Shown here: positions 6,638 through 25,552 of the stretch, piece by piece
How the letters are laid out: each line of letters starts with the position of its first letter
Numbering within the stretch: the first letter of the stretch is position 1
IMG/VR virus record: IMGVR_UViG_3300032157_000216
Span: 1-63,785 of that record
DNA length: 63,785 bases
Reading direction: 5' to 3' (one strand)
DNA from: a virus
Lineage: Duplodnaviria; Caudoviricetes
The notes under the pieces: model-generated
Databases searched by the model: none
What the model saw: only the letters and a program-made list of their open reading frames with translations
Told to the model about the DNA's origin: nothing
Made by a program: the position numbers and the translations under genes

Positions 6638-6712
6638 TGGAGCCGCCTAAAGGAATTGAACCCTCATCCCAAAGTTCGTAGCTTTGTATACTCTCCATTG
6701 TACTAAGGCGAC
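6638..6712 (-). tRNA. tRNA-Arg(ACG)
   Basis: Cloverleaf; CAAAG-CTACGAA-CTTTG; encoded CCA. Confidence 0.9.
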
Positions 6713-6716
6713 ATAT

Positions 6717-6792
6717 TGGCAGGGGATGTCAGGATCGAACTGACGCGTACCGACTTCAAAGGCCGGGGCCTTAACCGCTTGGCGAATCCCCA
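6717..6792 (-). tRNA. tRNA-Gln(TTG)
   Basis: Cloverleaf; CCGGC-CTTTGAA-GTCGG; CCA. Confidence 0.95.
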
Positions 6793-6801
6793 ATAATAAA
6801 T

Positions 6802-6867
6802 CAGAATGCAGTTTTTTACGTTTGATTTTCAGTCAAATTTTATGTAATTTTTGCAGGATGCATTCTT
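6802..6867 (-). ncRNA. CAGCAA-scaffold RNA copy E1, carrying a Phe(GAA) anticodon stem-loop
   Basis: AAG-AATGCATC-CTGCAA...TTTGA-CTGAAAA-TCAAA...TGCATTCTG. Confidence 0.75.
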
Positions 6868-6878
6868 TAGAATGAAAA

Positions 6879-6961
6879 CAGAATTCTTGTAACAAGCCCT
6901 GTTACAGGCCTGCTTGGAGTTGAACCAAGTTTATCCATAGGATGTTGCTGGAAGAATTCTT
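6879..6961 (-). ncRNA. CAGCAA-scaffold RNA copy E2, carrying a T-arm plus hairpin
   Basis: AAG-AATTCTTC-CAGCAA...CTTGG-TTCAACT-CCAAG...GAATTCTG. Confidence 0.75.
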
Positions 6962-6967
6962 TAAATT

Positions 6968-7044
6968 TGGTACCCCACCTCGGATTCGAACCGAGAACCA
7001 ACAGATTTTAAGTCTGTCCGCACTACCAATTAGCGTAGCAGGGC
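6968..7044 (-). tRNA. tRNA-Leu(TAA), short variable loop
   Basis: ACAGA-CTTAAAA-TCTGT; 5-nt variable loop; CCA. Confidence 0.9.
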
Positions 7045-7053
7045 AAAATAAGT

Positions 7054-7224
7054 GTCGAATATATGATTTATTTTAGGTAGCTCCTGCAGTGGACTTTTAT
7101 CTACCCTCACATGGTGTTCCCTTGATTAAGATGCCCTTAATATGTTCGGGAGTTTAAATCAGCCACGACAGAAATTTCCATCGAGTTTAAATTGACGTCA
7201 TCTCGATCTTTCCATATATTCAAC
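7054..7224 (-). ncRNA. Putative structured ncRNA of unknown family
   Basis: Terminal stem GTTGAATATATG / CATATATTCGAC with internal hairpins; no ORF. Confidence 0.5.
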
Positions 7225-7233
7225 TGGAAACTG

Positions 7234-7869
7234 TTATACTCTACCTTTTTTCCAGCCAGGTAAAATATCTATATCTTTCTTTACTTTCTTATTTATAATA
7301 CCATCTGTAATCCACATAGTACCATATTGTGAACTTTTCTCTCCACAACTTTGTGGACGCGGACCGGACATTTTCTTTTTTGTTTCATCAGTATGTTTCT
7401 TACCTTTAAAACTTGGTTCCCACCAAATGCCGCCGTGTTCCTTATATTTTTCTTTAAATACCTCGACACCTTTTTTATTTTGATTCTGCATTCTTTCTTT
7501 ATACGTCTTCAGTTCATCTCCCTCTAGAGATTTAACCTTATCGCTGAATGCCTTACCACCCAGTGTTGCTCCGCGAACACTATCTTCACGAACAAAACCT
7601 CCACGACCTCCCGGCTTTAAGTTGTAAACTTCCGGGTTTTTAAGAAACTCCTCATTTACAACAACTCTTTCTTTTAAAAGAGCAGATTCATAATCATCAA
7701 AATATTCTAAAATCTCTTTTTTAAAATTCTCTCTACCATATTTCTTAATAGCGTATCGAATTCTTTTTCCAGAACCCAGATACATATTATCTGTGGTTTT
7801 TGCTTTATGGATCCCAATATAAATCTTATTATTAATAAGATTGGTAGTTTTATACAAGTAAATAATCAT
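7234..7869 (-). CDS. GIY-YIG free-standing homing endonuclease (Seg-like, NUMOD3-type repeat)
   Basis: IYLYKTTNLINNKIYIG, YLGSG, YN and KGKKHTDETKKKMS. Confidence 0.9.
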   Translation of the reverse strand: MIIYLYKTTNLINNKIYIGIHKAKTTDNMYLGSGKRIRYAIKKYGRENFKKEILEYFDDYESALLKERVVVNEEFLKNPEVYNLKPGGRGGFVREDSVRGATLGGKAFSDKVKSLEGDELKTYKERMQNQNKKGVEVFKEKYKEHGGIWWEPSFKGKKHTDETKKKMSGPRPQSCGEKSSQYGTMWITDGIINKKVKKDIDILPGWKKGRV

Positions 7870-7894
7870 ACTTGTATTTATCTTTTTCCCAATG

Positions 7895-7983
7895 AGGCCA
7901 GGGTTGGATTCAAACCAACGATGTATACCAAGGTAGTTTCCCGCTTTGCAGACGAGTGCATTCGATCGCTTTGCTACCTGGCC
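7895..7983 (-). tRNA. tRNA-Cys(GCA) with long variable arm, CCA not encoded
   Basis: GGCCAGG/CCTGGCC acceptor, T73, CTCGT-CTGCAAA-GCGGG, about 20-nt variable region. Confidence 0.8.
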
Positions 7984-7985
7984 AT

Positions 7986-8366
7986 TTACTCTACTTCTTC
8001 ACCCAATTCCTCTTTCAGTTTCTTAAACATCTTGAGTTTGGACTCTCTATCTTTCAATTCTTTCTTCATCTTACGTGTAAGAGCTGCATCTTCACGCTTT
8101 TTCTTTTCTTCTGCTTCTCTTATTTCTTCTGCTTTCGAAATAGCAAGATAATCTTTAATTGTCTTGGCAACAAATGCTTTTGTATCAACTGGACGTTCTA
8201 AAAGTTGAAAATTCAACTTCTGAGAAGCAAATTTTAAAGTTCTGAATTCTTCATCAGATACTTCTTCCCAATCTGTAATTGATTCGACGATCTTATGATA
8301 GTCATCATCGTATTCTCCGGAGCAGTAAAACTCACGCGAGATAATAATTGCTATCTTATGTGACAT
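7986..8366 (-). CDS. Hypothetical protein with coiled-coil C terminus
   Basis: 126 aa ORF with an AGGAG RBS. Confidence 0.75.
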   Translation of the reverse strand: MSHKIAIIISREFYCSGEYDDDYHKIVESITDWEEVSDEEFRTLKFASQKLNFQLLERPVDTKAFVAKTIKDYLAISKAEEIREAEEKKKREDAALTRKMKKELKDRESKLKMFKKLKEELGEEVE

Positions 8367-8385
8367 ACTATCTCCTTAATAAAGT

Positions 8386-8449
8386 CAGAGTGCGCTTTCT
8401 TTTCAAGATAATGGTTTGAAATTTTTAATTGTTTGCGGTAAACACTCTT
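8386..8449 (-). ncRNA. CAGCAA-scaffold RNA copy E3, carrying a degenerate hairpin
   Basis: AAG-AGTGTTTA-CCGCAA...TTTCAA-ACCATTATC-TTGAAA...GCACTCTG. Confidence 0.7.
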
Positions 8450-8457
8450 TAGAAACT

Positions 8458-8541
8458 TGGTGGAGATAGCTGGAATCGAACCAACCGGGCGTTAACAGGT
8501 GATTTACAGTCACCCCCTGCTCCATACAGGTCTACATCTCC
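8458..8541 (-). tRNA. tRNA-Tyr(GTA)
   Basis: GGTGA-CTGTAAA-TCACC; extended variable region; CCA. Confidence 0.85.
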
Positions 8542-8547
8542 AAATTC

Positions 8548-8678
8548 AGTCGGTAATACGTTACCAGCGTGGAAAAGCATACAACTTATTCCAATAATAG
8601 GGCAATGGCTACACGTGGAATTGACCATTGCGTGTCCACTCGGCCGGAATTACTTCCGCGCATTCATCCACGACGACT
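8548..8678 (-). ncRNA. Putative structured ncRNA abutting the tRNA-Lys 3' end
   Basis: Nested stems AGTCG/CGACT, CGTGGA/TCCACG, CGGAA-GTAA-TTCCG and GCAATGG/CCATTGC. Confidence 0.55.
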
Positions 8679-8752
8679 TGGTAGGGCTGCAAGGAATCAA
8701 ACCTTGGTAGATCGGTTAAAAGCCGACTATTCTATCATTGAATTACAACCCC
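8679..8752 (-). tRNA. tRNA-Lys(TTT)
   Basis: GTCGG-CTTTTAA-CCGAT; CCA. Confidence 0.9.
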
Positions 8753-8922
8753 GAAACTGACATTCTACGTTTGATTTCAATGTGAATATCATAATATGTC
8801 ATTCCCATTTCCTTCAAGTAGGAAAACTCATCAACTGCTTCATAATGATTCCACTTCACAAACTCTTCATAGAGTTTAAGTAGTTCATCACCCGATAACT
8901 CTCTTAGTTCTTTGTTTGTCAT
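8743..8922 (-). CDS. Small hypothetical protein
   Basis: Start moved to MTNKEL because the longer ORF runs through tRNA-Ser. Confidence 0.55.
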   Translation of the reverse strand: MTNKELRELSGDELLKLYEEFVKWNHYEAVDEFSYLKEMGMTYYDIHIEIKRRMSVSGL

Positions 8923-8935
8923 TATTACTTTTATT

Positions 8936-9026
8936 TGGCGGATGACCGGGGGGTCGAACCCCGAAACCTGTTCATCACAAGTCGACAGTTTAGCAAACTG
9001 CTCCAATACCATTATGGGAGTCATCC
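8936..9026 (-). tRNA. tRNA-Ser(GCT)
   Basis: GCAGT-TTGCTAA-ACTGT; long variable arm; G73; CCA. Confidence 0.9.
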
Positions 9027-9034
9027 AAAATTCT

Positions 9035-9167
9035 TGCTGCCCTAAGGAGGAATCGAACCTCGAGTGTATCAGACTCTGAACCTTACCTTGTACCTACTAA
9101 GTGTTCAGTACTCTTTCCCTGATACGTACGAAATACGTACTAACCCTTCAGCGGTTCACATGGGGCA
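9035..9167 (-). ncRNA. Enlarged tRNA-like RNA without a normal anticodon loop
   Basis: Acceptor-like ends, T-arm GAGG-TTCGATT-CCTC, extra hairpin, long interrupted central arm. Confidence 0.6.
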
Positions 9168-9173
9168 TATGTA

Positions 9174-9491
9174 TTATAACTTGTCCGGGTACTTAGAGTC
9201 AAGTACATCAACCGCATGAAACGGACTTGTTCCAATGTCAAGGACTTGAATATTTATAAATCCATTCTCCTCTGTGATCAAACTGTCCTTCGAATCGATT
9301 GATCCACGATACTTGTCATGACCTTTCTTATTCATAAGATCGCCTGTAGCAGGATCAATCGATCCCCATTCAGTCTTGACATTACCCATTGGTTCAACAG
9401 CATAGGTTTTTCCTGTACGAGTAGAATGAATGATGAAACGTCCCGTCTCATCTGTGTTCGTTAAGAATTTTTGTCTTACGTCTTGTCTCAT
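9174..9491 (-). CDS. Hypothetical protein
   Basis: 105 aa ORF with a GAAGGGA RBS. Confidence 0.75.
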   Translation of the reverse strand: MRQDVRQKFLTNTDETGRFIIHSTRTGKTYAVEPMGNVKTEWGSIDPATGDLMNKKGHDKYRGSIDSKDSLITEENGFINIQVLDIGTSPFHAVDVLDSKYPDKL

Positions 9492-9516
9492 ACCATTTCC
9501 CTTCTGTTAAAATCCC

Positions 9517-9614: not shown

Positions 9615-9618
9615 TTTC

Positions 9619-9695: not shown

Positions 9696-9701
9696 ATAAA
9701 C

Positions 9702-9784: not shown

Positions 9785-10537
9785 CTAATCTAGACTTCCT
9801 GTAAAGTCCTTCGGAACAAAATGTAGAAAGACTCCTAAAGCACTTTCAAATGAATTAGGCATTGGATCTCTCCAATGTGGATCACGGGTTCCTGAATACA
9901 ACACTGCATCACCTGCGTCAAGTTCAACTCGATTTACTATCTGTTCACGTTCGATAAACAATGGCCATTCTCTTAATGAAATATTTGGTTTACCTTGTAG
10001 CATCATTGAGATATTATATTCACATTGTGGTCGATCAGTATGCTTAGGTAATACAGCACCAACCACATAAGCTGCGGTGAATGCATAACTTGCCTTGATA
10101 GGTTTATCTACGATATAATTTATCATCGTTTCAACATTCTGATGAATCAATCTCATCAACGGTAAGTTATGAACCCACAATCGTTTAGATATATGTCCAA
10201 ATTTGTGTAATTCCGGTTTTAACCAAAAATGATGAGCCATCACAGTTTCAGCATACTCTTTAGTTATCAACTGTGGTATCCTTACCCAACCTTGATTTCT
10301 CATCTGTTCGCGTAACTCTTCCCATGAAAGTCGTCCTTCGGGATTTTGATGCCTGAGGATAAATTCTAATTTCCCTTCCTCAAATGGGGAAGGATACCAT
10401 CCTTGGTAATAAGAATCATAAATCCAAATAATTGGTTTAATTAAGGAATCACTAATGGCCTGGTAATCAACACGATGTGCATTTTTGACGTCGAGTGGAA
10501 CATCATCAGATGTCTGAATTATGTATGTACTCATCAT
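9785..10537 (-). CDS. 2OG-Fe(II) oxygenase
   Basis: LPKHTDRPQCEY, GDAVLYSG, PHWR and FLHF; start placed 5 nt after GATAAATA. Confidence 0.8.
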   Translation of the reverse strand: MMSTYIIQTSDDVPLDVKNAHRVDYQAISDSLIKPIIWIYDSYYQGWYPSPFEEGKLEFILRHQNPEGRLSWEELREQMRNQGWVRIPQLITKEYAETVMAHHFWLKPELHKFGHISKRLWVHNLPLMRLIHQNVETMINYIVDKPIKASYAFTAAYVVGAVLPKHTDRPQCEYNISMMLQGKPNISLREWPLFIEREQIVNRVELDAGDAVLYSGTRDPHWRDPMPNSFESALGVFLHFVPKDFTGSLD

Positions 10538-10551
10538 AATTCTATTTATCA

Positions 10552-10623
10552 TGGCAAGGGCGGTGAGAATCTAACTCACTCCGACAAGGTTCAAAGCCTT
10601 GCGTCGCTACAAGCGTCACCCCA
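10552..10623 (-). tRNA. tRNA-Gln(TTG), compact non-canonical fold
   Basis: GCAAGG-CTTTGAA-CCTTGT 6-bp stem; 3-nt D loop; CCA. Confidence 0.7.
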
Positions 10624-10629: not shown

Positions 10630-10707
10630 TGGTATTCCCATCGGGATTTGAACCCGACTTTCCACCTTGAGAGGGTAGCGTCCTAAATGCCACTAGACGA
10701 TGGGAAT
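10630..10707 (-). tRNA. tRNA-Glu(CTC)
   Basis: CTACC-CTCTCAA-GGTGG; CCA. Confidence 0.9.
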
Positions 10708-11197: not shown

Positions 11198-11226
11198 ACT
11201 ATACGACTTATATAGACACATGTCAA
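11198..11226 (-). promoter_or_regulatory. Sigma70-type promoter directly upstream of tRNA-Gly
   Basis: TTGACA-17 nt-TATAGT. Confidence 0.75.
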
Positions 11227-12445: not shown

Positions 12446-12522
12446 TGGTACCTGGATAGAGAATCGAACTCTACTAATCCCATTTGTAAGAAGGGTGGCT
12501 TCACCAGCTGCACTCTCCAGGC
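12446..12522 (-). tRNA. tRNA-Val(TAC)
   Basis: Loop CTTACAA; CCA. Confidence 0.85.
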
Positions 12523-14366: not shown

Positions 14367-15746
14367 TTACACTTCCTTATTGATGAAATATTTATTTCCT
14401 ATTTCTTCTCTATTTATCTTTGTAAATCCCCAACGCCGTTCCATACAATGCCAATTGCTACAAGGGTCATATAATGAGGTGTGATTTTTACCACATTTTG
14501 CGGTATACTCAAAAATATCTTCTAATCCCAATTGTATGATAGCATCAACAATATGATATTTCTTTAGAAGTAAGAATGGTAATCTCACATAATCAGGAAA
14601 ATTTGTTGGCCTTACTGGCCCACCATCGAGCCCACTCCCTGGACCGGGTATTTCATTAGAACCCGAAAAGAGAAACATATTATTAGAATATTTTCGTTTT
14701 TCATCAATATTAGTGAAATAATTATGTAACCCGGGTGGAACCTGATCCTGAGGAATTCTATCTACGGGTCCAGGATGAGTTGTAAGTTTTAAAATGTTAC
14801 CATTAACCTTATTTCTAATAATATCAATCATTAGTTCAGCATTGGCTTTATCATCGGTAATTGCTTGACTGTTGAGACTACCGTTATCGCTTGTAATCAT
14901 TATCGGTTTTATGAAATAAGGTACAACCTGTTGGCTATTAAGCCCTCCTAGAATATACAATAATAAAGAGCTATCCATTCCACCGGTAAATCCGACGATT
15001 ATAGTATTATCCGGTTCACGATTCACTGGCAATTCTACTTTCATTATCCGTCTATCGTTTTCCGGACCAACTTCTAGTTCAAACGACGTATCAACAAGTG
15101 GTGGATAAATTATAGGATTTATGTCAACATATTTACTATGATCTAAAAACAATGTAGTTCTTGAATATTCTCTAATCCAAATTGTAGCAAGCCATTTCTC
15201 ACCTTTAGTGACAAGTTTTCCACAATGTTCTGATGCCCGTTTTACGAACGGGTCTGGATCACTGTAATCAAAGTATAGAATACTTCCCTTTTTAGGAGAA
15301 ACCCATAATCTTAACCAAGGAAAATCTGTATCTCCACCTTCAAAATCATCATTGAGATACATCAAAACTGTTGCAATTCTATAACCACCTTTTTCAATAT
15401 TTTTAGCACCATTAGGCCCAGTAATATAATCGGTGTGTCTCTTAAATTCTTCACCAGGAAGATATCTTATAACAGTAATTTTATCAAATCTCGATTTATC
15501 AATTCCTATAATTTTAGAAATTTTATCTCTTATCTGTATACCTATTAAACTTTCATCATCTACAAACGATGCTGAACAATTTCTATGTTTAATAGAAACT
15601 TCAGGATCACCAGAATCTCCATAAATCTTACCGGGTACTAGGTTTGCTCTTGCTTCTTCTATTAATGAATTACATTCCTCATCAGTAAGAGCATTCTCCA
15701 TTAATTTAACTGGTGGTGTTATTCTTAATTCTTGAAATTCTGGCAT
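14367..15746 (-). CDS. Fusion of a prolyl 4-hydroxylase-like oxygenase and a QueC-like PP-loop ATPase domain
   Basis: N half HTD...HCG...KGEKW; C half FTGGMDSS and a Cys-rich tail KC-x10-CSNWHCMERR. Confidence 0.75.
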   Translation of the reverse strand: MPEFQELRITPPVKLMENALTDEECNSLIEEARANLVPGKIYGDSGDPEVSIKHRNCSASFVDDESLIGIQIRDKISKIIGIDKSRFDKITVIRYLPGEEFKRHTDYITGPNGAKNIEKGGYRIATVLMYLNDDFEGGDTDFPWLRLWVSPKKGSILYFDYSDPDPFVKRASEHCGKLVTKGEKWLATIWIREYSRTTLFLDHSKYVDINPIIYPPLVDTSFELEVGPENDRRIMKVELPVNREPDNTIIVGFTGGMDSSLLLYILGGLNSQQVVPYFIKPIMITSDNGSLNSQAITDDKANAELMIDIIRNKVNGNILKLTTHPGPVDRIPQDQVPPGLHNYFTNIDEKRKYSNNMFLFSGSNEIPGPGSGLDGGPVRPTNFPDYVRLPFLLLKKYHIVDAIIQLGLEDIFEYTAKCGKNHTSLYDPCSNWHCMERRWGFTKINREEIGNKYFINKEV

Positions 15747-17242: not shown

Positions 17243-18016
17243 TTATTGATAATTTTCTGGTTGCATTATCCAGATATCATCTGTTAACCTTCTTGGATCT
17301 TCAAACCAACCATATGGCATCTTGAAATCTCCGTTAAGTCCCCAACCGGTTCCCCAAGAGTTTCTAACCCATACATATGGTTCTTTAACATCTCTTTCAT
17401 CATAACCAACTGCGGTTACAGCATGGCCGCCAACAATATAATCTTCGTCTGTTGGTAATCTAACCCATCCTGTTGTCGCAACTTCATCGCTCATAAAATA
17501 TTCAGGGACTGAGAATCCAAACACAACAGGTATTCTCAATGCCAATGCTGTCTTTATATCAGTGATGGTATCTAATCTTTGATAAGATCTAATCATCGGA
17601 GGTATAAGTTTAGCATTTTTATACGCTCTTGTCGACGGTTTCCTTGCAAATCTTTCAATGATGTATGGCCAAACTGCCTCAGTTGCTACGCCATACTTAC
17701 AAATACCTTTGATGACATCACGAATATATGCACCATCATCGTACTTTGTATTATTTTCTATTTTTCGAGCAGTATAATACGCCATCAACCTAGAATATTG
17801 AACACCTGTGCCCAATATTATTTCTAATGCTGTGGTTGCTGCATTTCCGGTGCAGGAACCTAACTGACCTTGATCTTCAACTTGATTATTTACACTCAAT
17901 GGAGCAATATAATCAGGAAGTATTACCGCTGAAGAGGCAGTAAAGAGCTTATCTCTATGATCTGCTACCTCCGGTTTCCATTTAAATACACGTGGTTTAA
18001 GCATGATGGCCTCCAT
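17243..18016 (-). CDS. Papain-family (C1A) cysteine peptidase
   Basis: DQGQLGSCTG, GGHAV and RNSWG..WG..G. Confidence 0.9.
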   Translation of the reverse strand: MEAIMLKPRVFKWKPEVADHRDKLFTASSAVILPDYIAPLSVNNQVEDQGQLGSCTGNAATTALEIILGTGVQYSRLMAYYTARKIENNTKYDDGAYIRDVIKGICKYGVATEAVWPYIIERFARKPSTRAYKNAKLIPPMIRSYQRLDTITDIKTALALRIPVVFGFSVPEYFMSDEVATTGWVRLPTDEDYIVGGHAVTAVGYDERDVKEPYVWVRNSWGTGWGLNGDFKMPYGWFEDPRRLTDDIWIMQPENYQ

Positions 18017-18052
18017 ATAAATTATTATTTATATGAATGACCTAAAATAAAA

Positions 18053-18156
18053 CAGGTTGTTGTTGCTAACCCGGGACTCGAACCCACGCAACACCCCCAG
18101 CGGGACAGGCACGAAAAGTTTTGGCTCGTATATTTTTGTTTGCTGTAATCAACCTT
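18053..18156 (-). ncRNA. CAGCAA-scaffold RNA copy E4, carrying hairpins and a T-loop module
   Basis: AAG-GTTGATTA-CAGCAA...TGTTGC-GT-GGG-TTCGAGT-CCC...GCAACA-A-CAACCTG. Confidence 0.7.
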
Positions 18157-18167
18157 CAGAAACTAAA

Positions 18168-18287
18168 CAGGATACCTTTTTAGATAGGCTATCAACCTAT
18201 TGCCAAACCATTTGGCGTACAACGCAGAAGCGTAGTGTTGGAATTGAACCAACTAGTCTTATTAAGACTTTTGCTGCATGTATCCTT
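18168..18287 (-). ncRNA. CAGCAA-scaffold RNA copy E5, carrying a circularly permuted tRNA-Ile(GAT)
   Basis: Inside the AGGATAC/GTATCCT stem the order is T arm, acceptor 3' strand, TTCT, acceptor 5' strand, D arm, anticodon arm. Confidence 0.75.
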
Positions 18288-18292
18288 CAAAC

Positions 18293-18369
18293 TGGTACCC
18301 CCGGAGAGATTCGAACTCCCATCCAACACGTTCTAAGCGTGTCCGCACTACCAATTAGCGTACGGGGGC
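18293..18369 (-). tRNA. tRNA-Leu(TAG), short variable loop
   Basis: ACACG-CTTAGAA-CGTGT; CCA. Confidence 0.9.
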
Positions 18370-18613: not shown

Positions 18614-18687
18614 TGCATACCATCGAGGATTCGAACCCCGACTTTAAGGTTTTGGAGACCCAACGACTGCCGTTATCTTAATGGTAT
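18614..18687 (-). tRNA. tRNA-Trp(CCA), CCA end not encoded
   Basis: Loop CTCCAAA; ATACCAT/ATGGTAT acceptor; G73. Confidence 0.8.
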
Positions 18688-19311
18688 ATTTTTCTTTATA
18701 TAATCCCAACTCAACTGAGTTTTATCTAGGATCATAATCATTATTTTATTTTGTTCTATTACTCTTTCAATCTTTTCTTTATCTAAAATGCGAACATACG
18801 GATTCTTCGGATCTAGATATAGATCATAATCTATTAAATAAAAATCAGGATAATATCTTCTCTTTTGATTATTTAAATCAAAATAAAGCAATGGTGATGG
18901 TCTATTCCATCTAACTTTATTTTTATCTAAATCAATCGCTAATTCATATTCCCAGTTTGATTCAAATCTAACACCATTATACAAAATTCTTTTAGATGCT
19001 GTATAACGATTTTCCATCTTACTCTGCATTATAGACGATATTCTTTCTTTACATTCCAAAGTATGAGGAGTTCTATGTGGAATATATTCACCAATTCGAA
19101 TCTTTTCTTTAAAAGTTAAAGATCCCTGCATTATACTTTCATCAGTAAACTTAGTTTTACCTTTTTTAGATGATATTTTTCCCTTCATCCCATTCACATA
19201 ATTTCTATTTGGATTTATCGGGCAACACCTTTCGTGATTTCTATGACTATTCTCATTATGACATTCTTTATCACAAAATCTACATGATAACATTAACTTC
19301 TCCGGTAGCAC
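18673..19311 (-). CDS. Putative free-standing PD-(D/E)xK (TnsA-like) endonuclease
   Basis: N-terminal CxxC...H...C; FESNWE, YYPDFYL and LYLDPK. Confidence 0.75.
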   Translation of the reverse strand: MLPEKLMLSCRFCDKECHNENSHRNHERCCPINPNRNYVNGMKGKISSKKGKTKFTDESIMQGSLTFKEKIRIGEYIPHRTPHTLECKERISSIMQSKMENRYTASKRILYNGVRFESNWEYELAIDLDKNKVRWNRPSPLLYFDLNNQKRRYYPDFYLIDYDLYLDPKNPYVRILDKEKIERVIEQNKIMIMILDKTQLSWDYIKKNIPLR

Positions 19312-19421: not shown

Positions 19422-19497
19422 TGGCTCCGCAAGAACGATTCGAACGCTCCTCACTTGGTTAACAGCCAAGGGTACTCACCGAGAATACGATTGCGGA
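19422..19497 (-). tRNA. tRNA-Asn(GTT)
   Basis: CTTGG-CTGTTAA-CCAAG; G73; CCA. Confidence 0.9.
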
Positions 19498-19508
19498 ATT
19501 GAATTATC

Positions 19509-19574
19509 TGATGTATATAGGAATCGAACCTAGACTTGGCTTTAGTTCAGCTTTGCCGTCCACGGCATACATCA
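19509..19574 (-). ncRNA. Miniature tRNA-like RNA or tRNA pseudogene
   Basis: TGATGTAT/ATACATCA terminal stem and TAGG-TTCGATT-CCTA T arm; degenerate anticodon arm; no CCA. Confidence 0.5.
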
Positions 19575-19743: not shown

Positions 19744-19819
19744 TGGAGCAGGTGGCGGGAATCGAACCCGCGCCTTTAGTTTGGAAGACTATGATGCTAC
19801 CATTAGACACCACACCTGC
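19744..19819 (-). tRNA. tRNA-Gly(TCC)
   Basis: Loop CTTCCAA; T73; CCA. Confidence 0.9.
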
Positions 19820-19945: not shown

Positions 19946-20974
19946 TTAGACCGGAGCACCGATCCAAATCATCAGGCCCATGCCCTTGGTAAGCTTACGG
20001 TTAACCGACGTCGATTGGACGTAGATTTCATAGTTACCATGCTGGCCCGGAGCAACCTTAACATCACCGGAATGCGGCAAGCCGAGAAGATCACGCGCAC
20101 CATATCCGCTGTAAACAGCACCAGTCGTCTTATCACGAACGGCAATCTGTTTATAGCCTTGAACAGTTTCGGTCTTCTTCAGTTCATAAAATGCACAACC
20201 CTTAACAAAGGTAACGCCTTGATCATTCACGAAGTCACGAATCTGGCAACCGTCCCACTGAGCATCCACTTCATACACATCCACCTGCTTAGAAATATCA
20301 ACCAGAGTGGCTTTTACTTCCTTCAGGCTGACATTACTCATGTCAGTATAGAATTTGTCAGTGCTCCTTACACCAGTAGCACGAGCTGCATAGAAGCCCT
20401 TGAACGCACTCTTGGTAGCAGCGGTAGAAACTTGAACACCACGTTCAGATTGTTCCCATTCCTGAATGTTACCATCAGGAATACCATATTGGGTAAGCGA
20501 ACGCTTATAACCCTTCGGTACACGGAACACAAACGTCCAACGATCAGTTGCTTGAAGTTCCTTGATCATCTTTGCAACGGATGAACCCGAATGCTTACAG
20601 CTTGCATTTTCCTCACCATCAGTGGTGGTAAACACAACAAAAGAAACATCAGGATCATCGGCATCCGGAACAGCTTTCAATTGCTCAACCAAGTCACCCA
20701 CCGCATCAAACAACGGAGTTCCGTGGCCCCTGGCGCTATAACTCGATTCGGTAATCGGCTTCAACGCAGTGACAGACGAATTCTTGATAACGGTACGTAC
20801 CTGATTGGTATTACCATATCCAAGTTCAACAACCGATACAATAGTATCGATGCCATGATTGGCTGCTTCCTCTTTGATCGACACAATGTTATCATTGTAG
20901 TCACGTGCGGCGTGACGTGCAATAGTAGCCATCGAGCCGGAGTGATCTCGTGCAAAACCAATGTAGTTCTTCAT
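19946..20974 (-). CDS. von Willebrand factor A (vWA) domain protein
   Basis: MIDAS motif DHSGSM, GTPLFDAV and TDGEEN; GAAAGG RBS. Confidence 0.85.
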   Translation of the reverse strand: MKNYIGFARDHSGSMATIARHAARDYNDNIVSIKEEAANHGIDTIVSVVELGYGNTNQVRTVIKNSSVTALKPITESSYSARGHGTPLFDAVGDLVEQLKAVPDADDPDVSFVVFTTTDGEENASCKHSGSSVAKMIKELQATDRWTFVFRVPKGYKRSLTQYGIPDGNIQEWEQSERGVQVSTAATKSAFKGFYAARATGVRSTDKFYTDMSNVSLKEVKATLVDISKQVDVYEVDAQWDGCQIRDFVNDQGVTFVKGCAFYELKKTETVQGYKQIAVRDKTTGAVYSGYGARDLLGLPHSGDVKVAPGQHGNYEIYVQSTSVNRKLTKGMGLMIWIGAPV

Positions 20975-21006: not shown

Positions 21007-21035
21007 ACTATACAATAAGTACATCACTTTGTCAA
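21007..21035 (-). promoter_or_regulatory. Sigma70-type promoter of the vWA gene
   Basis: TTGACA-17 nt-TATAGT. Confidence 0.75.
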
Positions 21036-21547
21036 CTGGTGTCGCTAATTCGTTTTAATGCTTTTCGCCCCTTGCCTTTATTCTTAGCACCAAAAGTTGG
21101 TGTTTGTGAATGGCAATTTGGACACAATAATCTAACGTTAGATGGCAAATTATTATTTGAAAATCCATTGATATGATCTAAATGAAGACTCAATGGTTCT
21201 CCCGACCAATCTGATATTCCACATTTCATACATTTGTATCCAAATCTTTCAATTAAGACTTGTTTTATTGTCGAATTTTCTACTAATTCGCCTTTATCAA
21301 ATTTTTCTGATCTTCGTTTTTTACAAGTATCTATTCTTTGTTCTACATTCTTAGACACCAATAATGATTTTTCTGTCCTAATCTTATTAGTCTTTCTATT
21401 AGACTCTAATAGTCTAGAGGATTGTTTAGCCGAAATAGATTTCTTTAGTTTATCTTTATCTGTCCATGTTCTACTATTAGCACATTTTCTACAACAATAA
21501 ACCCCAGGCTTATTATGTAAATTTGGACATTTAGGACATTGTTTCAT
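21032..21547 (-). CDS. HNH homing endonuclease
   Basis: CMKCG, LHLDHING..NN...N.RLLCPNCH. Confidence 0.9.
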   Translation of the reverse strand: MKQCPKCPNLHNKPGVYCCRKCANSRTWTDKDKLKKSISAKQSSRLLESNRKTNKIRTEKSLLVSKNVEQRIDTCKKRRSEKFDKGELVENSTIKQVLIERFGYKCMKCGISDWSGEPLSLHLDHINGFSNNNLPSNVRLLCPNCHSQTPTFGAKNKGKGRKALKRISDTS

Positions 21548-21601
21548 AATCGAACTCCGATAAAAAGTTAATACACTATTTATCTAAGTTCGATTAACAT
21601 T

Positions 21602-21722
21602 TGGTGTCGCTGGACGGAGTCGAACGCGTCATCACTTCCTTATGATGGAATGATTTTGATTGCTGTATGTATCCTTGTCAGGATCACTTTCTTTAAGTGT
21701 GTTACCCTTACACTACAGCGAC
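21602..21722 (-). tRNA. tRNA(CAT) interrupted by a 46-nt permuted CAGCAA-scaffold copy (E6)
   Basis: Removing 21651-21696 gives a 75-nt cloverleaf with CTTCC-ATCATAA-GGAAG and CCA. Confidence 0.75.
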
Positions 21723-22322: not shown

Positions 22323-22396
22323 TGGTCAGGGTAGGTGGAATCGAACCACCGTCGTCCGGTTCCAGGCCGGGGAGTCTACCATTGATTTACACCCTG
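22323..22396 (-). tRNA. tRNA-Pro(TGG) (C33, A37)
   Basis: CCGG-CCTGGAA-CCGG; CCA. Confidence 0.85.
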
Positions 22397-22415
22397 AATA
22401 TAGATAAATATCATT

Positions 22416-23033: not shown

Positions 23034-23035
23034 AT

Positions 23036-23109
23036 TGGAGCCCCATGACCGAATCAAACGATCGTCCTCTGACTACAAAACAGTTATTCTATCACTGAAC
23101 TAATAGGGC
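23036..23109 (-). tRNA. tRNA-Thr(TGT)
   Basis: Loop TTTGTAG; CCA. Confidence 0.85.
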
Positions 23110-23115
23110 ATTATT

Positions 23116-23523
23116 CTAACACCGACCGAAAATGTCGGATTTTATTTCTTTTTCTAACATTCTCAATTTCGAATGTTTTGATAAAGCTTCTTTAACAATC
23201 GGAGTGTTCATTACAGTTTCATGAATTTCGTTATGTCTTTTTTTATTTTCTAATTCTAATGGAGTACCATACATAATCTCATCCCATGACATTCCAAATT
23301 CTTTTTCTACTATAACATTTGATTCAGACTCGGAGAAACCTAAATTACCTAATTCACCCAATCTTCTCAAACATTTTAATGATCGACTAAATGTAATGTT
23401 ACTTATATCGAGTTCTCTCCTTAATTCCATTAATTTCTGTAATTCTACATTATTCTCAATCTTTTTATGTAAAAAAATTACTCTCTTCCTTAATTTAAGA
23501 ATCTTCTTTTCTTTTCTTTGCAT
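23116..23523 (-). CDS. Hypothetical protein
   Basis: Start at MQRKEK preceded by GGAG. Confidence 0.6.
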   Translation of the reverse strand: MQRKEKKILKLRKRVIFLHKKIENNVELQKLMELRRELDISNITFSRSLKCLRRLGELGNLGFSESESNVIVEKEFGMSWDEIMYGTPLELENKKRHNEIHETVMNTPIVKEALSKHSKLRMLEKEIKSDIFGRC

Positions 23524-23560
23524 ACACTTCTCCGTATTGCAAATATTTAGCAAACTAAAA

Positions 23561-23617
23561 CAGAGTACACATTTGGCTTCATTTACAGTGAATTTTTGGA
23601 TTGCTGAAGGTACTCTT
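23561..23617 (-). ncRNA. CAGCAA-scaffold RNA copy E7, carrying a Tyr(GTA) anticodon stem-loop
   Basis: AAG-AGTACCTT-CAGCAA...TTCA-CTGTAAA-TGAA...GTACTCTG. Confidence 0.8.
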
Positions 23618-23623
23618 TAAACT

Positions 23624-23699
23624 TGGCGCCGCTGAAGGGAATCAAACCCTCCTAAATCCGCTAGACAGGCGGTTGCACTCATCAGAATGCGACAACGGC
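23624..23699 (-). tRNA. tRNA-Asp(GTC) (T37)
   Basis: CCGC-CTGTCTA-GCGG; G73; CCA. Confidence 0.85.
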
Positions 23700-23708
23700 A
23701 TGATAAAA

Positions 23709-23763
23709 CAGTGTTCTTATTTTCAATTAAAAGTTGAATTTTGAATTTGCTGAACGAACACTT
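23709..23763 (-). ncRNA. CAGCAA-scaffold RNA copy E8, carrying a Lys(TTT) anticodon stem-loop
   Basis: AAG-TGTTCGTT-CAGCAA...TTCAA-CTTTTAA-TTGAA...GAACACTG. Confidence 0.8.
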
Positions 23764-23789
23764 TAGAAAACTTTATTGTATTGTAGTAT

Positions 23790-23948
23790 TTGTCAGGTTA
23801 TTGTTCTACAACATTACGACGCAACATTAGGCAGGATTTTCACCCTTTCGCAACCGCGCGCCTAACTCCACTGCTCGATACCACCACCTAGTTTACATGT
23901 ATAGAAACAGTTGCGTTATATATACACAACACTAGGCTGTCCGGACAA
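23790..23948 (-). ncRNA. Putative structured ncRNA
   Basis: TTGTC.GG / CC.GACAA terminal stem; CCTAG/CTAGG and TTAGGC/GCCTAA arms. Confidence 0.45.
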
Positions 23949-23954
23949 TAAATA

Positions 23955-24029
23955 TGGTGGAGGCCGTCGGTATCGAACCGAACTAGACAGCAATCTTGCA
24001 AGGATCACCCGCAGCCCTCTGCTGCCCCC
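23955..24029 (-). tRNA. tRNA-Ala(TGC), compact non-canonical fold
   Basis: G3:U70, A73, no acceptor-D linker, GTGATC-CTTGCAA-GATTGC 6-bp stem; CCA. Confidence 0.75.
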
Positions 24030-24040
24030 ATAAATAAAAT

Positions 24041-24172
24041 TCTTGAGACTATTTTTCAATAGTTGTCGTCTCGAAAGAGCGAGTTTTAACAAACCATACT
24101 TCACGTTAAAACCAGTGCCTGGCTTTCGCCGGCATCGTTACTTGGGACTCTAGCACTTCGTCTATCTCAAGA
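24041..24172 (-). ncRNA. Putative structured ncRNA
   Basis: TCTTGAGA/TCTCAAGA terminal stem; two GAAA-capped hairpins; GTTTTAAC/GTTAAAAC arm. Confidence 0.55.
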
Positions 24173-24177
24173 AAAAT

Positions 24178-24262
24178 TGGTGGACCCTGATAGATTTGAA
24201 CTACCGAAACCAGAAGGTGCCATCTTCACTGATGGTGGGTTTGCCCGCTCCCCTAAAGGCCC
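24178..24262 (-). ncRNA. tRNA-like RNA with an Ala-type acceptor and a 6-nt loop
   Basis: GGGCCTT/AGGGTCC (G3:U70), A73, CCA; CCATC-AGTGAA-GATGG. Confidence 0.65.
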
Positions 24263-24269
24263 ATAAACT

Positions 24270-24357
24270 TGGTGTGTCTTGATGGAATCGAACCACTTGC
24301 CTACCTCCCACCTTATTTTGGCTACAGTTTTACAGACTGCAAGCGGGGACAAGACAC
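24270..24357 (-). tRNA. D-armless tRNA-Tyr(GTA)-like gene
   Basis: 8-bp acceptor, TGCAGT-CTGTAAA-ACTGTA, large V loop, 4-bp T stem; CCA. Confidence 0.7.
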
Positions 24358-24520
24358 ATAAACATAATATTTCTTAAAAACTAATTCATAATTCTTAAAA
24401 AATATGCATACACGTCGTATGCCTGTCTCTTGATAGTTGATACTATCTCCAGAACCCCCTGCTCATTGCTGCGCTTTATTATAGTGTATTGCTGTTATAC
24501 AGGTATACTTACACTCTTTT

Positions 24521-25075
24521 CTATTCGTTTACGGAATAGAAAATATTTAAGGAAGTCGTAACATCAATCTTAAACCATTCGCCAACTCTTTTAAGAGTAG
24601 ACAGATTCATTTTATCTATGATAAAAGATTCCATCTTTCTACGATCAGTTACCCATCGAAGTCCTACAATAGCATATCGTTTTTCAGGATCATATTGATT
24701 ATAGACGCTAAGTCTCTTTTCATAATCAAAAGCCATTCCAACTTTGACCCAACCTGGAAATGATTCATTCTCAATCAAATAAACAAAACCTTCTTTAATC
24801 AAAGTCTGTTCACCGTGAACTCGAATTTCGTCTTTATATTTTTGACGATTATCCAGGAGTTTTCTATATAATATTTCTTCGTTAGTAACCATTGGTTTAG
24901 TTACTGGTCTTACTTTCTCCTTAAAATTTACAATTCTCTTCTTAGATTCGATTATCTTAATCTTATCTTTCTTTTTCTTCTTAAGTTGCCCAGTTTCGAT
25001 CAAAAATCTATTATGGATCTTTGTTTTATAGTAAAGATCAGCATAATTACCAATGCTCGAAATTTTCTTACTCAT
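24521..25075 (-). CDS. T5orf172-type (GIY-YIG superfamily) protein
   Basis: GFVYLIEN..FPGWVKVG.A....KRL..YN and GEWF; start moved to MSKK, downstream of the terminator. Confidence 0.75.
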   Translation of the reverse strand: MSKKISSIGNYADLYYKTKIHNRFLIETGQLKKKKKDKIKIIESKKRIVNFKEKVRPVTKPMVTNEEILYRKLLDNRQKYKDEIRVHGEQTLIKEGFVYLIENESFPGWVKVGMAFDYEKRLSVYNQYDPEKRYAIVGLRWVTDRRKMESFIIDKMNLSTLKRVGEWFKIDVTTSLNIFYSVNE

Positions 25076-25088
25076 ATATTTAATATCA

Positions 25089-25120
25089 ACAAAAAAGCCG
25101 CTTAGTTTCCTATGCGGCTT
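25089..25120 (-). terminator. Attenuator terminator
   Basis: AAGCCGC...GCGGCTT followed by TTTTGTT; its 5' arm is shared with the antiterminator. Confidence 0.85.
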
Positions 25121-25151
25121 CCTTTTATAAGTGTTCTGGATACTTTTATCT

Positions 25152-25313
25152 TTAGTTTCCAGACTCCTTGTAGAAGGAAGCCATCGTAATTGGATCTTGT
25201 TCATTACTAGGTGTGAACCCAAACGACCAATAACCTTTGCCGGCGCAGAGGCGCTTGGAGGCTAAGGCCACCATATGCATCTCATTAGCAGTTTTCAGTT
25301 GTCGTTCAATCAT
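25152..25313 (-). CDS. Putative 53 aa attenuator leader peptide containing all 20 amino acids
   Basis: MIERQLKTANEMHMVALASKRLCAGKGYWSFGFTPSNEQDPITMASFYKESGN; its 3' codons form one arm of an antiterminator. Confidence 0.7.
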   Translation of the reverse strand: MIERQLKTANEMHMVALASKRLCAGKGYWSFGFTPSNEQDPITMASFYKESGN

Positions 25314-25430
25314 TTTAGTCTTTCAAAATCTCAAGTTAAGTTAAGGTTTGTAAACTTTCGTTTACATAAAGTTATTTATCATCTTAGGTAAAAACACCGT
25401 ATTATTTGTGTCTTTTCCCATCAAGCCGCA

Positions 25431-25459
25431 AGTTTAACAAGTTATAGTTAGTCTGTCAA
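25431..25459 (-). promoter_or_regulatory. Sigma70-type promoter (proximal) for the leader and tRNA cluster
   Basis: TTGACA-17 nt-TAAACT followed by GC-rich TGCGGC. Confidence 0.75.
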
Positions 25460-25523
25460 GTTACTCAAGTTATCTTCTTAGAGACAGACATATTGCTTGC
25501 GCTATATTTATTTATCATCTGTG

Positions 25524-25552
25524 ATTCTAACGTTGTTTTAGATAGGTGTCAA
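25524..25552 (-). promoter_or_regulatory. Sigma70-type promoter (distal) for the leader and tRNA cluster
   Basis: TTGACA-17 nt-TAGAAT. Confidence 0.75.

Follow-up and report, generated by a model that had tools for sequence, protein, structure and literature searches.

The tRNA island and its source record

The DNA examined here is the whole of IMG/VR virus record IMGVR_UViG_3300032157_000216 (63,785 bases), referred to as the window. It carries the tRNA island of an uncultured jumbo myovirus, on the minus strand. CheckV puts the completeness of the record at 19%, so that the genome would measure about 330 kb. Interspersed with the tRNA genes are small elements that we call scaffold RNAs. They make up a new phage RNA family, supported by covariation, whose members display parts of tRNAs on a scaffold with the hallmarks of the Class I RNAs of dictyostelid amoebae. 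Genes outside the island include those for a T4-type major head protein, the portal, the tail sheath and tail fibres. The major head protein shows 79.2% identity to its counterpart in Pseudomonas jumbo phage PA5oct and 71.4% to the one in Sinorhizobium phage Phosso.

Relatives were located using an open reading frame (ORF) of the island, 19946..20974 (-), which belongs to phrog_26613. Related viral loci are given L-numbers and whole records G-numbers. Record G002 includes loci L010 and L015-L017, L019 lies in G005, and G006 is 100% complete by CheckV. A megablast search with the island found no isolate phage sharing its DNA, and a distant blastn search with 17900-25600 matched only the HNH gene.

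A family of scaffold RNAs

Read on the sense strand, a scaffold RNA begins with AAAG and an arm of 5-7 nt, followed by a single-stranded UUCAGCAA motif, an A-rich stretch, a variable insert, the complementary arm and CUGUUUU. The AAAG commonly comes right after the CCA of a tRNA and a short AGUUU-like spacer. C-GCAA is the same in all eight seed sequences, whose consensus is UUCAGCAA. The predicted pairing probability of the motif is 0.36, compared with 0.50 for the elements overall. For the 32 simple members the medians are 58 nt in length (range 35-72) and 0.31 in GC content (range 0.19-0.46), while nine members with long inserts measure 77-123 nt.

A covariance model, R1, was built from eight copies. 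It produced 23 matches in the window and its close relatives, 20 further matches in 8/45 viral loci chosen by a 20-base pattern (the other 37 loci had none), and 25 matches in five whole records (G006-G010). In all, the family is carried by 11 viral contigs, all from related jumbo phages. With filters off, R1 found five matches at E < 0.05 in the whole window, every one on the minus strand within the island. The genomes of PA5oct and Phosso gave no scaffold RNA with R1. The first-pass annotation of this DNA had counted eight scaffolded RNAs made of tRNA parts, and the same number was recovered: seven are free-standing (A, B, C, D, E, E2 and H) and in the eighth, element F, the motif is built into a tRNA body. 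The window copies are as follows.

23700..23772 (-), scaffold C; R1 76.1 bits, RF01414 23.8 bits; insert loop CUUUUAA, a Lys-UUU look-alike
23552..23626 (-), scaffold B; R1 77.7 bits, RF01414 31.3 bits over the full model; loop CUGUAAA, a Tyr-GUA look-alike
21601..21722 (-), element F; Rfam tRNA 33.7 bits (21605-21722) with a 57-nt insert
18164..18290 (-), scaffold E; pattern match only; five-hairpin insert including a T-arm look-alike
18044..18165 (-), scaffold E2; R1 35.9 bits with default filters, 13.1 bits (part) with filters off; T-loop-like hairpin
8377..8458 (-), scaffold D; R1 68.8 bits; insert hairpin with a conserved 9-nt loop, the same loop occurring in L010 and L011
6877..6970 (-), scaffold A; R1 24.9 bits, E = 0.014, and pattern match; three-hairpin insert including a T-arm look-alike
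6793..6876 (-), scaffold H; R1 71.3 bits, RF01414 25.3 bits; loop CUGAAAA, a Phe-GAA look-alike

The fold is backed by covariation, and the scaffold is a real RNA family. In the MAFFT alignment of the seed the closing stem is 100% paired, with 3/7 pairs changed on both sides. In two model-fitted sets it is 98.6-98.8% paired, with two-sided changes in four or five of the seven pairs. None of 500 shuffles reached the observed covariation in any of the three alignments, and sliding the partner strand abolished the pairing. The A-U and G-C pairs at the base of the stem are invariant (23/23 and 20/20 sequences).

These properties bear on the possibility that the scaffold copies and the odd tRNA genes are debris, either decaying tRNA fragments or a selfish inverted-end repeat spread by homing endonucleases. 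Endonuclease genes are indeed interspersed in the island, and several tRNA-like genes are degenerate. The arms, however, differ among copies and yet remain complementary, including G-U pairs that form on the sense strand only, which argues for selection at the RNA level and not for conserved inverted repeats. The hairpin stems are unrelated to the anticodon stems of the phage's own tRNAs, so the inserts are not gene fragments. In comparison with relatives, the non-coding gaps of the island are also conserved as well as, or better than, its coding DNA. We consider debris a very unlikely explanation. An inverted-repeat mobile element as such was rejected, as the arms covary rather than being conserved.

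Other identities were considered and discarded. A hepatitis delta virus (HDV)-like fold, considered by eye, was rejected because the ~17 nt between the 5' arm and the insert are too few for a P3 hairpin plus the P1 return strand. Known self-cleaving ribozymes (hammerhead, HDV-like, twister, pistol, hatchet and the others in Rfam 15) gave no match at E <= 1 or E <= 10. A search for bacterial or archaeal members yielded at least 120 stretches with the pattern. Of 80 scored with R1 only one produced a score (39.4 bits), and it was taken as chance because no tRNA lies nearby and its arms are poorly complementary.

Inserts resemble parts of tRNAs

In the simple members the insert is an A/U hairpin of 4-6 bp. 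About 17/30 of them, read by eye, have a 7-nt C-U-NNN-A-A loop, the frame also found in 23/39 of the phage tRNA and tRNA-like genes. Thirteen triplets are displayed across the family: GUA, UUU, UGU, GAA, CAA, UGA, GUU, CAU, GAU, UAC, GAC, GUC and CUU. Of these, scaffold E contributes GAU, element F and its counterparts UAC, GAC and GUC as well as CAU again, and the anticodon arm within L049:9878-10009 CUU. Loop sequences outlast stems; CUUUUAA, for example, is carried by four different stems. Elements at equivalent positions may swap their triplet (UUU/UGU; GUA/GAA/CAA).

The larger inserts carry other tRNA parts. Scaffolds A, E and E2 have T-arm or T-loop look-alikes among their extra hairpins, the stems of which differ between the window and a relative while pairing is kept. 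One hairpin loop of scaffold E, UUGAUAG, is the loop of the tRNA-Ile at 19579. The L012 counterpart of E scores 35.9 bits with R1, and the hairpin stems of the two copies differ yet stay paired. Counterparts of E2 occur in L010, G007 and G008, and the counterpart of A in L011 has covarying hairpins. "Elbow" inserts, a T arm plus a D arm, were found in relatives (L054:2986-3110 and G008:21974-22097), as were circularly permuted whole-tRNA inserts with a capped acceptor stem (L049:9878-10009 and L015:15616-15755).

Element F has the body of a tRNA (acceptor, D and T arms and CCA), in which the anticodon arm is replaced by a 57-nt module made up of AAAG, a hairpin, CAGCAA and an anticodon-arm-like hairpin. 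It is conserved in L009-L012 with covariation in the acceptor stem and an "anticodon" that varies among CAU, UAC, GAC and GUC, and the same design is present in G006. An intron was rejected as an explanation of the insert: in five genomes the insert retains the motif of the family along with an anticodon-like hairpin that changes.

Placement among tRNA genes

Scaffold RNAs are closely tied to tRNA genes. Of 41 unique R1 matches, 31 adjoin an ARAGORN tRNA on the same strand at a distance of -8 to +15 nt (19 upstream, 23 downstream), and 24/25 matches in G006-G010 lie in or beside tRNA arrays. The order C, tRNA-Asp, B is shared by the window, L011, L039, L046 and L049, with tRNA-Thr directly next in these four relatives, and L009 retains tRNA-Asp, B and tRNA-Thr. 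A blastn search of isolate phages with the C/tRNA-Asp/B triad gave no match at E <= 0.01.

Such placement could mean that the elements act in cis, as punctuation of the transcript: structured spacers that let neighbouring tRNAs fold independently, set the RNase E and RNase P sites and place a protective stem at the 5' end of downstream mRNAs. The loops would then be merely stable U-turns, and the RNAs would have no function after release. The window copies lie 0-3 nt from neighbouring tRNAs, a conserved A/U-rich AGUUU flank follows CCA at the 5' side, and a U run ends the element. Three of the seven free-standing copies (B, D and E2) stand directly upstream of ORFs and not of tRNAs. A spacer, however, needs no invariant single-stranded UUCAGCAA across 11 contigs. 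Nor does it need loops that are better conserved than stems, permuted tRNA bodies or elbow inserts, and most tRNA junctions in the island have no scaffold element. We think a purely cis role rather unlikely, but count it as a serious rival of a role in trans.

tRNA genes of the island

A gene was counted as a tRNA if it reached the Rfam RF00005 gathering score of 29 bits or was called by ARAGORN at default settings. ARAGORN called 29 genes and Rfam 28 (30 in the search of the record by itself). Taken together, these calls give 35 genes, every one of them on the minus strand within 6638-24262. With ARAGORN thresholds lowered in two steps, the count for the island rose to 36 and 39; the 40th call, at 46983, falls inside a coding region and was disregarded. 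Up to seven weaker tRNA-like genes come on top of the 35, for a supported total of 35-42 over 6638-24358 (-). Besides element F, six candidates score under the standard Rfam and ARAGORN thresholds. The first-pass count of 38 co-oriented tRNA genes for all 20 amino acids falls within this range, and the strand agrees.

With 27 distinct anticodons the set serves all 20 amino acids. Duplicate anticodons on dissimilar bodies had also been described, and eight such pairs were found, the members of each only 52-63% identical. CCA is encoded in 32/39 of the tRNA and tRNA-like genes. Anticodons are kept in the counterparts of related phages, even for the oddest genes, which argues that most of these genes are not pseudogenes. 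The anticodon-less tRNA mimics of the earlier description were recovered as well: 12533-12602 and 24178-24262 have 6-nt loops. In L010 the copy of the former keeps the 6-nt loop length but differs in loop sequence, on a stem that covaries, while the L009 counterpart of the latter is 82% identical and has an 8-nt loop. The genes are listed below in the order of the minus strand.

24273..24358 (-), weak tRNA-like gene; tRNA-Sec model 27.1 bits (below cut-off); 87% identical in L012
24178..24262 (-), tRNA-like gene, ARAGORN; long variable arm, encoded CCA, 6-nt "anticodon" loop
23955..24030 (-), weak tRNA-like gene (TGC), ARAGORN ps90 only; 75% identical to tRNA-Ala in L046
23624..23699 (-), tRNA-Asp(GTC) between scaffolds C and B; Rfam 36.7 bits, ARAGORN ps95
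23036..23109 (-), tRNA-Thr(TGT); Rfam 44.9 bits, ARAGORN ps95
22323..22396 (-), tRNA-Pro(TGG); ARAGORN and Rfam 48.5 bits
22147..22220 (-), tRNA-Pro(CGG); ARAGORN and Rfam 50.9 bits
22068..22141 (-), tRNA-Ile(GAT); ARAGORN and Rfam 48.7 bits
21986..22060 (-), tRNA-Gln(TTG); ARAGORN and Rfam 54.1 bits
21910..21978 (-), tRNA with loop CUUUCAA (Glu-UUC); Rfam only, 36 bits
21825..21900 (-), tRNA-Lys(CTT); ARAGORN only; 79% identical to an L009 tRNA
19744..19819 (-), tRNA-Gly(TCC); ARAGORN and Rfam 39.3 bits
19579..19652 (-), tRNA-Ile(GAT); Rfam 53.7 bits, ARAGORN ps95
19508..19574 (-), weak 67-nt tRNA-like element; ARAGORN ps90 only
19422..19497 (-), tRNA-Asn(GTT); ARAGORN and Rfam 46 bits
18615..18687 (-), tRNA-Trp(CCA); ARAGORN and Rfam 43.4 bits
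18535..18610 (-), tRNA-Phe(GAA), second copy; ARAGORN only
18293..18369 (-), tRNA with Leu anticodon TAG and short variable arm; ARAGORN and Rfam 57.6 bits
17163..17235 (-), tRNA-His(GTG); ARAGORN and Rfam 41.5 bits
17080..17155 (-), tRNA-Cys(GCA); ARAGORN and Rfam 55.2 bits
15783..15859 (-), tRNA with Leu anticodon CAA and short variable arm; ARAGORN and Rfam 47.9 bits
12773..12845 (-), tRNA-Ala(TGC); ARAGORN and Rfam 53.2 bits
12685..12760 (-), tRNA-Phe(GAA); ARAGORN and Rfam 64.5 bits
12533..12602 (-), non-decoding tRNA look-alike; Rfam 52 bits; 6-nt loop, CCA not encoded
12446..12522 (-), tRNA-Val(TAC); Rfam 33.9 bits, ARAGORN ps95; 91% identical in L055
12297..12389 (-), weak tRNA-Ser(TGA)-like gene; ARAGORN ps90; 84% identical in L010
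11112..11186 (-), tRNA-Gly(GCC); ARAGORN and Rfam 51.2 bits
11032..11105 (-), tRNA-Met(CAT); ARAGORN and Rfam 62.8 bits
10712..10784 (-), tRNA-Arg(ACG), second copy; ARAGORN only
10630..10707 (-), tRNA-Glu(CTC); ARAGORN and Rfam 51.2 bits
10552..10623 (-), weak tRNA-Gln(TTG)-like gene with reduced D arm; Rfam 24.8 bits, ARAGORN ps95; 85% identical in L010
9702..9777 (-), tRNA-Glu(TTC); ARAGORN and Rfam 53.5 bits
9619..9695 (-), tRNA-Gln(CTG); ARAGORN and Rfam 34 bits
9038..9111 (-), weak tRNA-like gene (CAG); ARAGORN ps95 only
8936..9026 (-), tRNA-Ser(GCT); ARAGORN and Rfam 43.9 bits
8679..8752 (-), tRNA-Lys(TTT); Rfam 61.7 bits, ARAGORN ps95
8458..8539 (-), tRNA-Tyr(GTA); ARAGORN and Rfam 32.8 bits
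7894..7983 (-), 90-nt tRNA with GCA anticodon; ARAGORN and Rfam 50.9 bits; 92% identical in L010
6968..7044 (-), tRNA with Leu anticodon TAA and short variable arm; ARAGORN and Rfam 53.3 bits
6717..6792 (-), tRNA-Gln(TTG); ARAGORN and Rfam 48.9 bits
6638..6712 (-), tRNA-Arg(ACG); ARAGORN and Rfam 52.4 bits

Several of these genes have unusual bodies. The tRNA at 7894-7983, with the Cys anticodon GCA, combines a long variable arm with a D stem of 3 bp and lacks an encoded CCA, and a normal tRNA-Cys lies at 17080-17155. The tRNAs with Leu anticodons at 6968-7044 (UAA), 15783-15859 (CAA) and 18293-18369 (UAG) are three 77-nt paralogues, 73-75% alike over 100 nt. They have a variable region of 4-5 nt instead of the long arm of bacterial tRNA-Leu, along with A73 and an encoded CCA, and their counterparts are present in L010, L012 and L055. 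The tRNA count of the window is far exceeded in record G002, a 136-kb relative with 55 Rfam tRNA matches across ~62 kb (73.9 to 135.9 kb).

Promoters and the leader

Promoters were sought as matches to a 12-base sigma-70-type consensus, with 11/12 taken as near-consensus. Five 11/12 sites lie on the sense strand (25845, 25552, 21035, 11226 and 9202) and none on the opposite strand. A first-order Markov simulation of the same strand predicts 0.45 +/- 0.66 such sites, and 0/300 runs reached five. Promoters had previously been placed at 25552-25524, 21035-21007 and 11226-11198; each scores 11/12, and the sites at 25845 and 9202 are additional.

25524..25552 (-), promoter-like site P1 at the head of the island; TTGACA, 17-nt spacer, TAGAAT; 11/12
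25431..25459 (-), promoter-like site P2; TTGACA, 17-nt spacer, TAAACT, with TG; 10/12
~25385..25417 (-), weak hairpin then U run, the proposed attenuator; two G-C pairs; between P2 and the second GATGATAAATAA box
24406..24422 (-), terminator-like hairpin and U run ahead of the first tRNA-like gene
21007..21035 (-), internal promoter-like site; 11/12
11198..11226 (-), internal promoter-like site; 11/12
9173..9202 (-), internal promoter-like site; 11/12

The leader block, 25552-25431, contains two promoter-like sites, each trailed by a GATGATAAATAA box. It is 74-85% identical in 6/10 related records and always stands at the head of the array. Both hexamers of P1 are invariant in L009, L011 and L012, and the -35 hexamer of P2 is conserved among relatives. 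The GATGATAAATAA box occurs twice, at 25505-25517 and 25371-25383 (-), and across 18-23 nt the second box and its flanks show 96-100% identity in G001, G003 and G008. The ATAAATA core of the box is reminiscent of T4-type late promoters.

The first-pass annotation had proposed that leader, tRNAs and scaffold RNAs form a single inducible rescue system, in which an attenuator in the leader senses tRNA depletion and switches on a tRNA pool together with decoy or repair RNAs. The conserved leader does head the array in these 6/10 records, and the predicted fold of the entire leader is modestly more stable than that of shuffled sequence (z = -2.62). Scaffold RNAs and tRNAs also travel together in the 11 contigs, and that part of the model stands. 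The attenuator was not confirmed. Its hairpin has only two G-C pairs, its sequence is not conserved in L009, L011 and L012, and it lies beyond the conserved block in 5/6 leader-bearing relatives. The terminator-like site at 24422-24406 has no blastn counterpart in the relatives. The conserved parts of the leader are the two promoters and the two GATGATAAATAA boxes, with the hairpin excluded. No T-box, riboswitch or other cis-regulatory Rfam family was matched in 6000-26500 at E <= 1, apart from chance-level plastid untranslated-region matches on tRNAs. On the whole the first-pass description of the island holds. The inducible sensor is unsupported, while a reading as a replacement pool plus RNAs made of tRNA parts is reasonable.

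The layout of the island also speaks against gating by the leader. The 53-aa and T5orf172 ORFs, together with the non-conserved terminator-like site, intervene between the leader and the first tRNA-like gene. Four further strong promoters are present, and 19 minus-strand ORFs, four of them endonuclease-type genes and all absent from the first-pass account, interrupt the island. That account had itself cautioned that internal promoters make the cluster partly independent of the leader, and we agree, with at least five strong promoters feeding the island. Leader and scaffolds are found together only in one syntenic clade, so the association is not an independent one; the same applies to the co-occurrence of tRNAs and scaffold RNAs. 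As for repair, no RtcB gene was found in the searched records. T4 RNA ligase 1 gave no match either, in a search that is uninformative since the control genomes gave none. We regard the single inducible system as very improbable. The simplest view is that several promoters drive the island constitutively, with no sensor as a gate.

Similarity to Class I RNAs and Y RNAs

The only non-tRNA Rfam family that recurrently matched the scaffold elements is RF01414 (Dicty_Class_I_RNA). It matched three window members (31.3, 25.3 and 23.8 bits) and 11 members in six related loci (23.9-38.1 bits). All 14 matches span the full model (1-56) and each falls exactly on an R1 family member. The best score, 38.1 bits (L011:8104-8158), is under the gathering score of 41.5. 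RF01414 had no match at E <= 10 in a control set of 66.5 kb of DNA from related phages that lacks R1 matches and includes a tRNA-rich stretch.

Class I RNAs, as described in the available text of Kjellin et al. 2021 (PMC7919456), have a 6-bp stem that joins the ends and is conserved in structure only, with compensatory changes, a motif of ~11 nt beside the 5' arm and a variable remainder. They start with a conserved AAG and end with CUGU, the G pairing with C. They are ~60 nt long (42-65 nt) with a GC content of 32-41%. The same text reports that they are bound by protein, namely the RNA recognition motif (RRM) protein Rnp1A, and that their genes are unique to Dictyostelia, none having been found outside (PMC7919456).

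The phage RNAs are alike in most of these respects. Their terminal stem of 5-7 bp, against 6 bp, is likewise conserved in structure through compensatory changes, and in both families a mostly unpaired motif of ~11 nt that ends in CAGCAA lies beside the 5' arm. AAG and CUGU are present as the predicted ends, with the G paired to C. The remainder is variable and A/U-rich, the median length of 58 nt is close to ~60 nt, and several copies occur per genome, often clustered. There are also differences. The phage motif is one A short (CUU-CAGCAA) compared with CUUACAGCAA of the model, and the median GC content of 0.31 is just under the Class I range. Phage members adjoin tRNAs in tRNA arrays, whereas the eukaryotic genes are free-standing behind a Dictyostelium upstream sequence element (DUSE) promoter. 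In 19/41 phage members a tRNA gene fills the upstream 60 nt, so a dedicated DUSE-type promoter at that distance is unlikely. Finally, the phage variable part holds tRNA-like modules, and a U run follows CUGU. No literature linking RNAs of phage tRNA arrays to Class I RNAs was found. Judged by sequence and predicted fold, the phage family closely resembles the dictyostelid Class I RNAs; descent, transfer and convergence would all be possible.

A second likeness is to the Y RNA YrlA (RF02553), which is also modular, with a terminal stem carrying a tRNA-like domain (T and D arms and a closed acceptor) that cannot be charged. L049:9924-9986 matched the YrlA model (36.8 bits, E = 2e-4), and inspection by eye shows the same layout in L015:15616-15755. 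The 36.8 bits fall short of the cut-off of 69, the stem motif differs, and most phage members have a hairpin only. The window itself shows no member with a full tRNA body, and there the YrlA model gave 26 bits over a tandem tRNA pair.

These likenesses suggest a modular ribonucleoprotein of the Class I or Y RNA type, in which stem, termini and UUCAGCAA would bind one dedicated host or phage protein and the tRNA-like module would tether it to tRNAs or the translation machinery, not serve as a nuclease decoy. The architecture equals that of the Rnp1A-bound Class I RNAs point by point (PMC7919456, as far as the available text goes), RF01414 matches window and relative members alike, and the members with permuted tRNA bodies follow the YrlA design. 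Against it, a TROVE/Ro60/Rsr gene was found in 0/10 records, including the complete G006, in a search whose positive controls matched, and RRM_1 had no match in G000, G002, G006, G007 and G008. These searches brought up no candidate partner gene, and all the Rfam scores are under the curated cut-offs. This explanation seems unlikely to us, but is likewise a serious rival.

Proposed role of the scaffold RNAs

Our preferred explanation, to which we give a probability of roughly 0.4 as a whole, is that the tRNA island is expressed constitutively and that its scaffold RNAs work in trans as tRNA mimics. Behind near-consensus sigma-70-type promoters, the tRNA genes fall into at least five predicted transcription units, and the scaffold RNAs would be transcribed along with them. 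From the way bacterial tRNA precursors mature and from the placement of the scaffolds, we infer that RNase P cleavage at the 5' end of the downstream tRNA, with 3' processing after the upstream CCA, could release the scaffold RNAs. The products would be stable, unchargeable RNAs of ~60-130 nt, the conserved stem and motif giving stability or a handle for a protein. Meanwhile the ordinary phage tRNAs would supply translation. We tentatively suggest that the released RNAs may occupy proteins that recognise tRNAs, most plausibly host anticodon nucleases. A decoy role is plausible from the sequences: the RNAs lie within tRNA arrays and their inserts are tRNA parts, which makes the idea reasonable. 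The C-type hairpins fit it as well: they present UUU or UGU and then, with U39, read UAAU, where the phage's own tRNA-Lys, tRNA-Asn and tRNA-Thr read UAAC, UAAC and UAGU. To our knowledge, no phage is known to use a bait mode of this kind.

A more specific version holds that the Class-I-type scaffold is evolutionarily related to the amoebal RNAs and has become a new kind of anti-defence bait, displaying anticodon arms, elbows or capped tRNA bodies, while nuclease-resistant phage tRNAs sustain translation. We view this version as improbable.

A number of observations weigh against the scaffold RNAs being trans-acting mimics. The hairpin stems are A/U-rich and dissimilar to real anticodon stems. 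The displayed triplets are mostly A/U-rich too, and base composition alone would favour them. Swaps of the "anticodon" at one position fit drift as much as an arms race. Several members are not anticodon-arm-like at all, namely D with its 9-nt loop and, with short loops, L054:839, L055:1505 and both L042 copies. According to modelling, AriB would also need contacts with the D-loop, which a bare hairpin lacks. The likeness to Class I RNAs suggests that stem and motif have a conserved role, which may be unrelated to phage defence, and the position of B, D and E2 ahead of ORFs would suit a role in cis as 5' stabilisers.

Two phage systems offer comparisons. The tRNA cluster of T4 has 8 tRNAs, the stable RNAs C and D (species 1 and 2) and the endonuclease SegB. 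There too, small stable non-tRNA RNAs stand among co-oriented tRNA genes and arise from the same precursors, and homing endonucleases lie inside the cluster. The likeness is one of layout and processing, and the numbers differ, 8 tRNAs plus 2 RNAs against ~35 plus 8 here. No AAG / CAGCAA / CUGU scaffold is known from T4 RNAs C and D. A link of SegB and tRNAs to anti-defence has been reported (PMC13096335).

The second is T5. The accessible portions of three papers report that phage tRNAs counter tRNA-cutting defences and that those of T5 neutralise PARIS and Retron-Eco7 (PMC11464382, PMC11555353, PMC12409363). The targets described there (Lys-UUU, Thr-UGU, Asn-GUU and Tyr-GUA) are the triplets commonest on the scaffold hairpins. 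The T5 RNAs are, in these accounts, working replacement tRNAs that resist cleavage, whereas the scaffold RNAs are unchargeable and would be baits.

Codon supply is the usual explanation for large phage tRNA arrays, joined lately by escape from tRNA-cutting defences. If the scaffold RNAs are indeed mimics, unchargeable RNAs that display tRNA parts would be a second, bait-type layer of that escape. The family supplies a defined set of ~60-nt RNAs that can be tested against PARIS, PrrC, retron or Septu effectors. Class I RNAs have been reported to be tied to the multicellularity of Dictyostelia. Stem, motif and termini of the same kind in a phage family call the uniqueness of Class I RNAs to Dictyostelia into question, and the family is a simple bacterial system for studying what stem and motif do. 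If the likeness is convergent, a compact RNA design has been selected twice.

Open reading frames and other features of the island

The ORFs of the island with a match or a position of interest are the following.

25152..25313 (-), 53-aa ORF from the ORF list; 25281-25088 is 75-80% identical in L009, L011 and L012
24521..25222 (-), T5orf172-domain ORF, endonuclease-like; PF10544 E = 3.6e-07; phrog_5032
21032..21547 (-), HNH homing-endonuclease ORF; PF01844; phrog_10822 E = 4.9e-26
19946..20974 (-), ORF of unknown function; phrog_26613
18673..19311 (-), endonuclease-like ORF; phrog_15137 E = 9.2e-16
17243..18016 (-), papain-family peptidase ORF; PF00112 E = 4.3e-14
14367..15746 (-), 2-oxoglutarate (2OG)-Fe(II) oxygenase ORF; PF13640
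12996..13559 (-), 2OG-Fe(II) oxygenase ORF, paralogue; PF13640; repeat family D1
9785..10552 (-), ORF matching a PHROG family labelled "ferrochelatase"; phrog_2954 E = 4.2e-28
7234..7869 (-), GIY-YIG / NUMOD3 homing-endonuclease ORF; phrog_314 E = 4.1e-40

The two 2OG-Fe(II) oxygenase paralogues share a 240-nt direct repeat (13015-13254 and 15157-15396, 71% identical). The sole long plus-strand ORF in the island, 22416-23033 (+), encodes 205 aa. It has no Pfam or PHROG match and is a putative gene.

Five gaps without ORFs fold strongly (15860-16074, 18370-18534, 24031-24177, 8540-8678 and 12846-12995, all on the minus strand). They fall outside the scaffold family and match no Rfam family. The gap 15860-16074 reaches -76.1 kcal/mol over 215 nt. 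Two stretches exceed coding DNA in conservation, 18527-18415 with 95-98% identity to L010 and 24183-24037 with 85-89% to L010 and L012.

Locus L019, in record G005, comes from a more distant relative that is rich in tRNAs. It has no scaffold RNAs and encodes a transfer-messenger RNA (tmRNA) at 9084-9443 (-). This tmRNA scores 109.3 bits with the beta_tmRNA model and 115 bits with the permuted-tmRNA model, both of which exceed the cut-offs.

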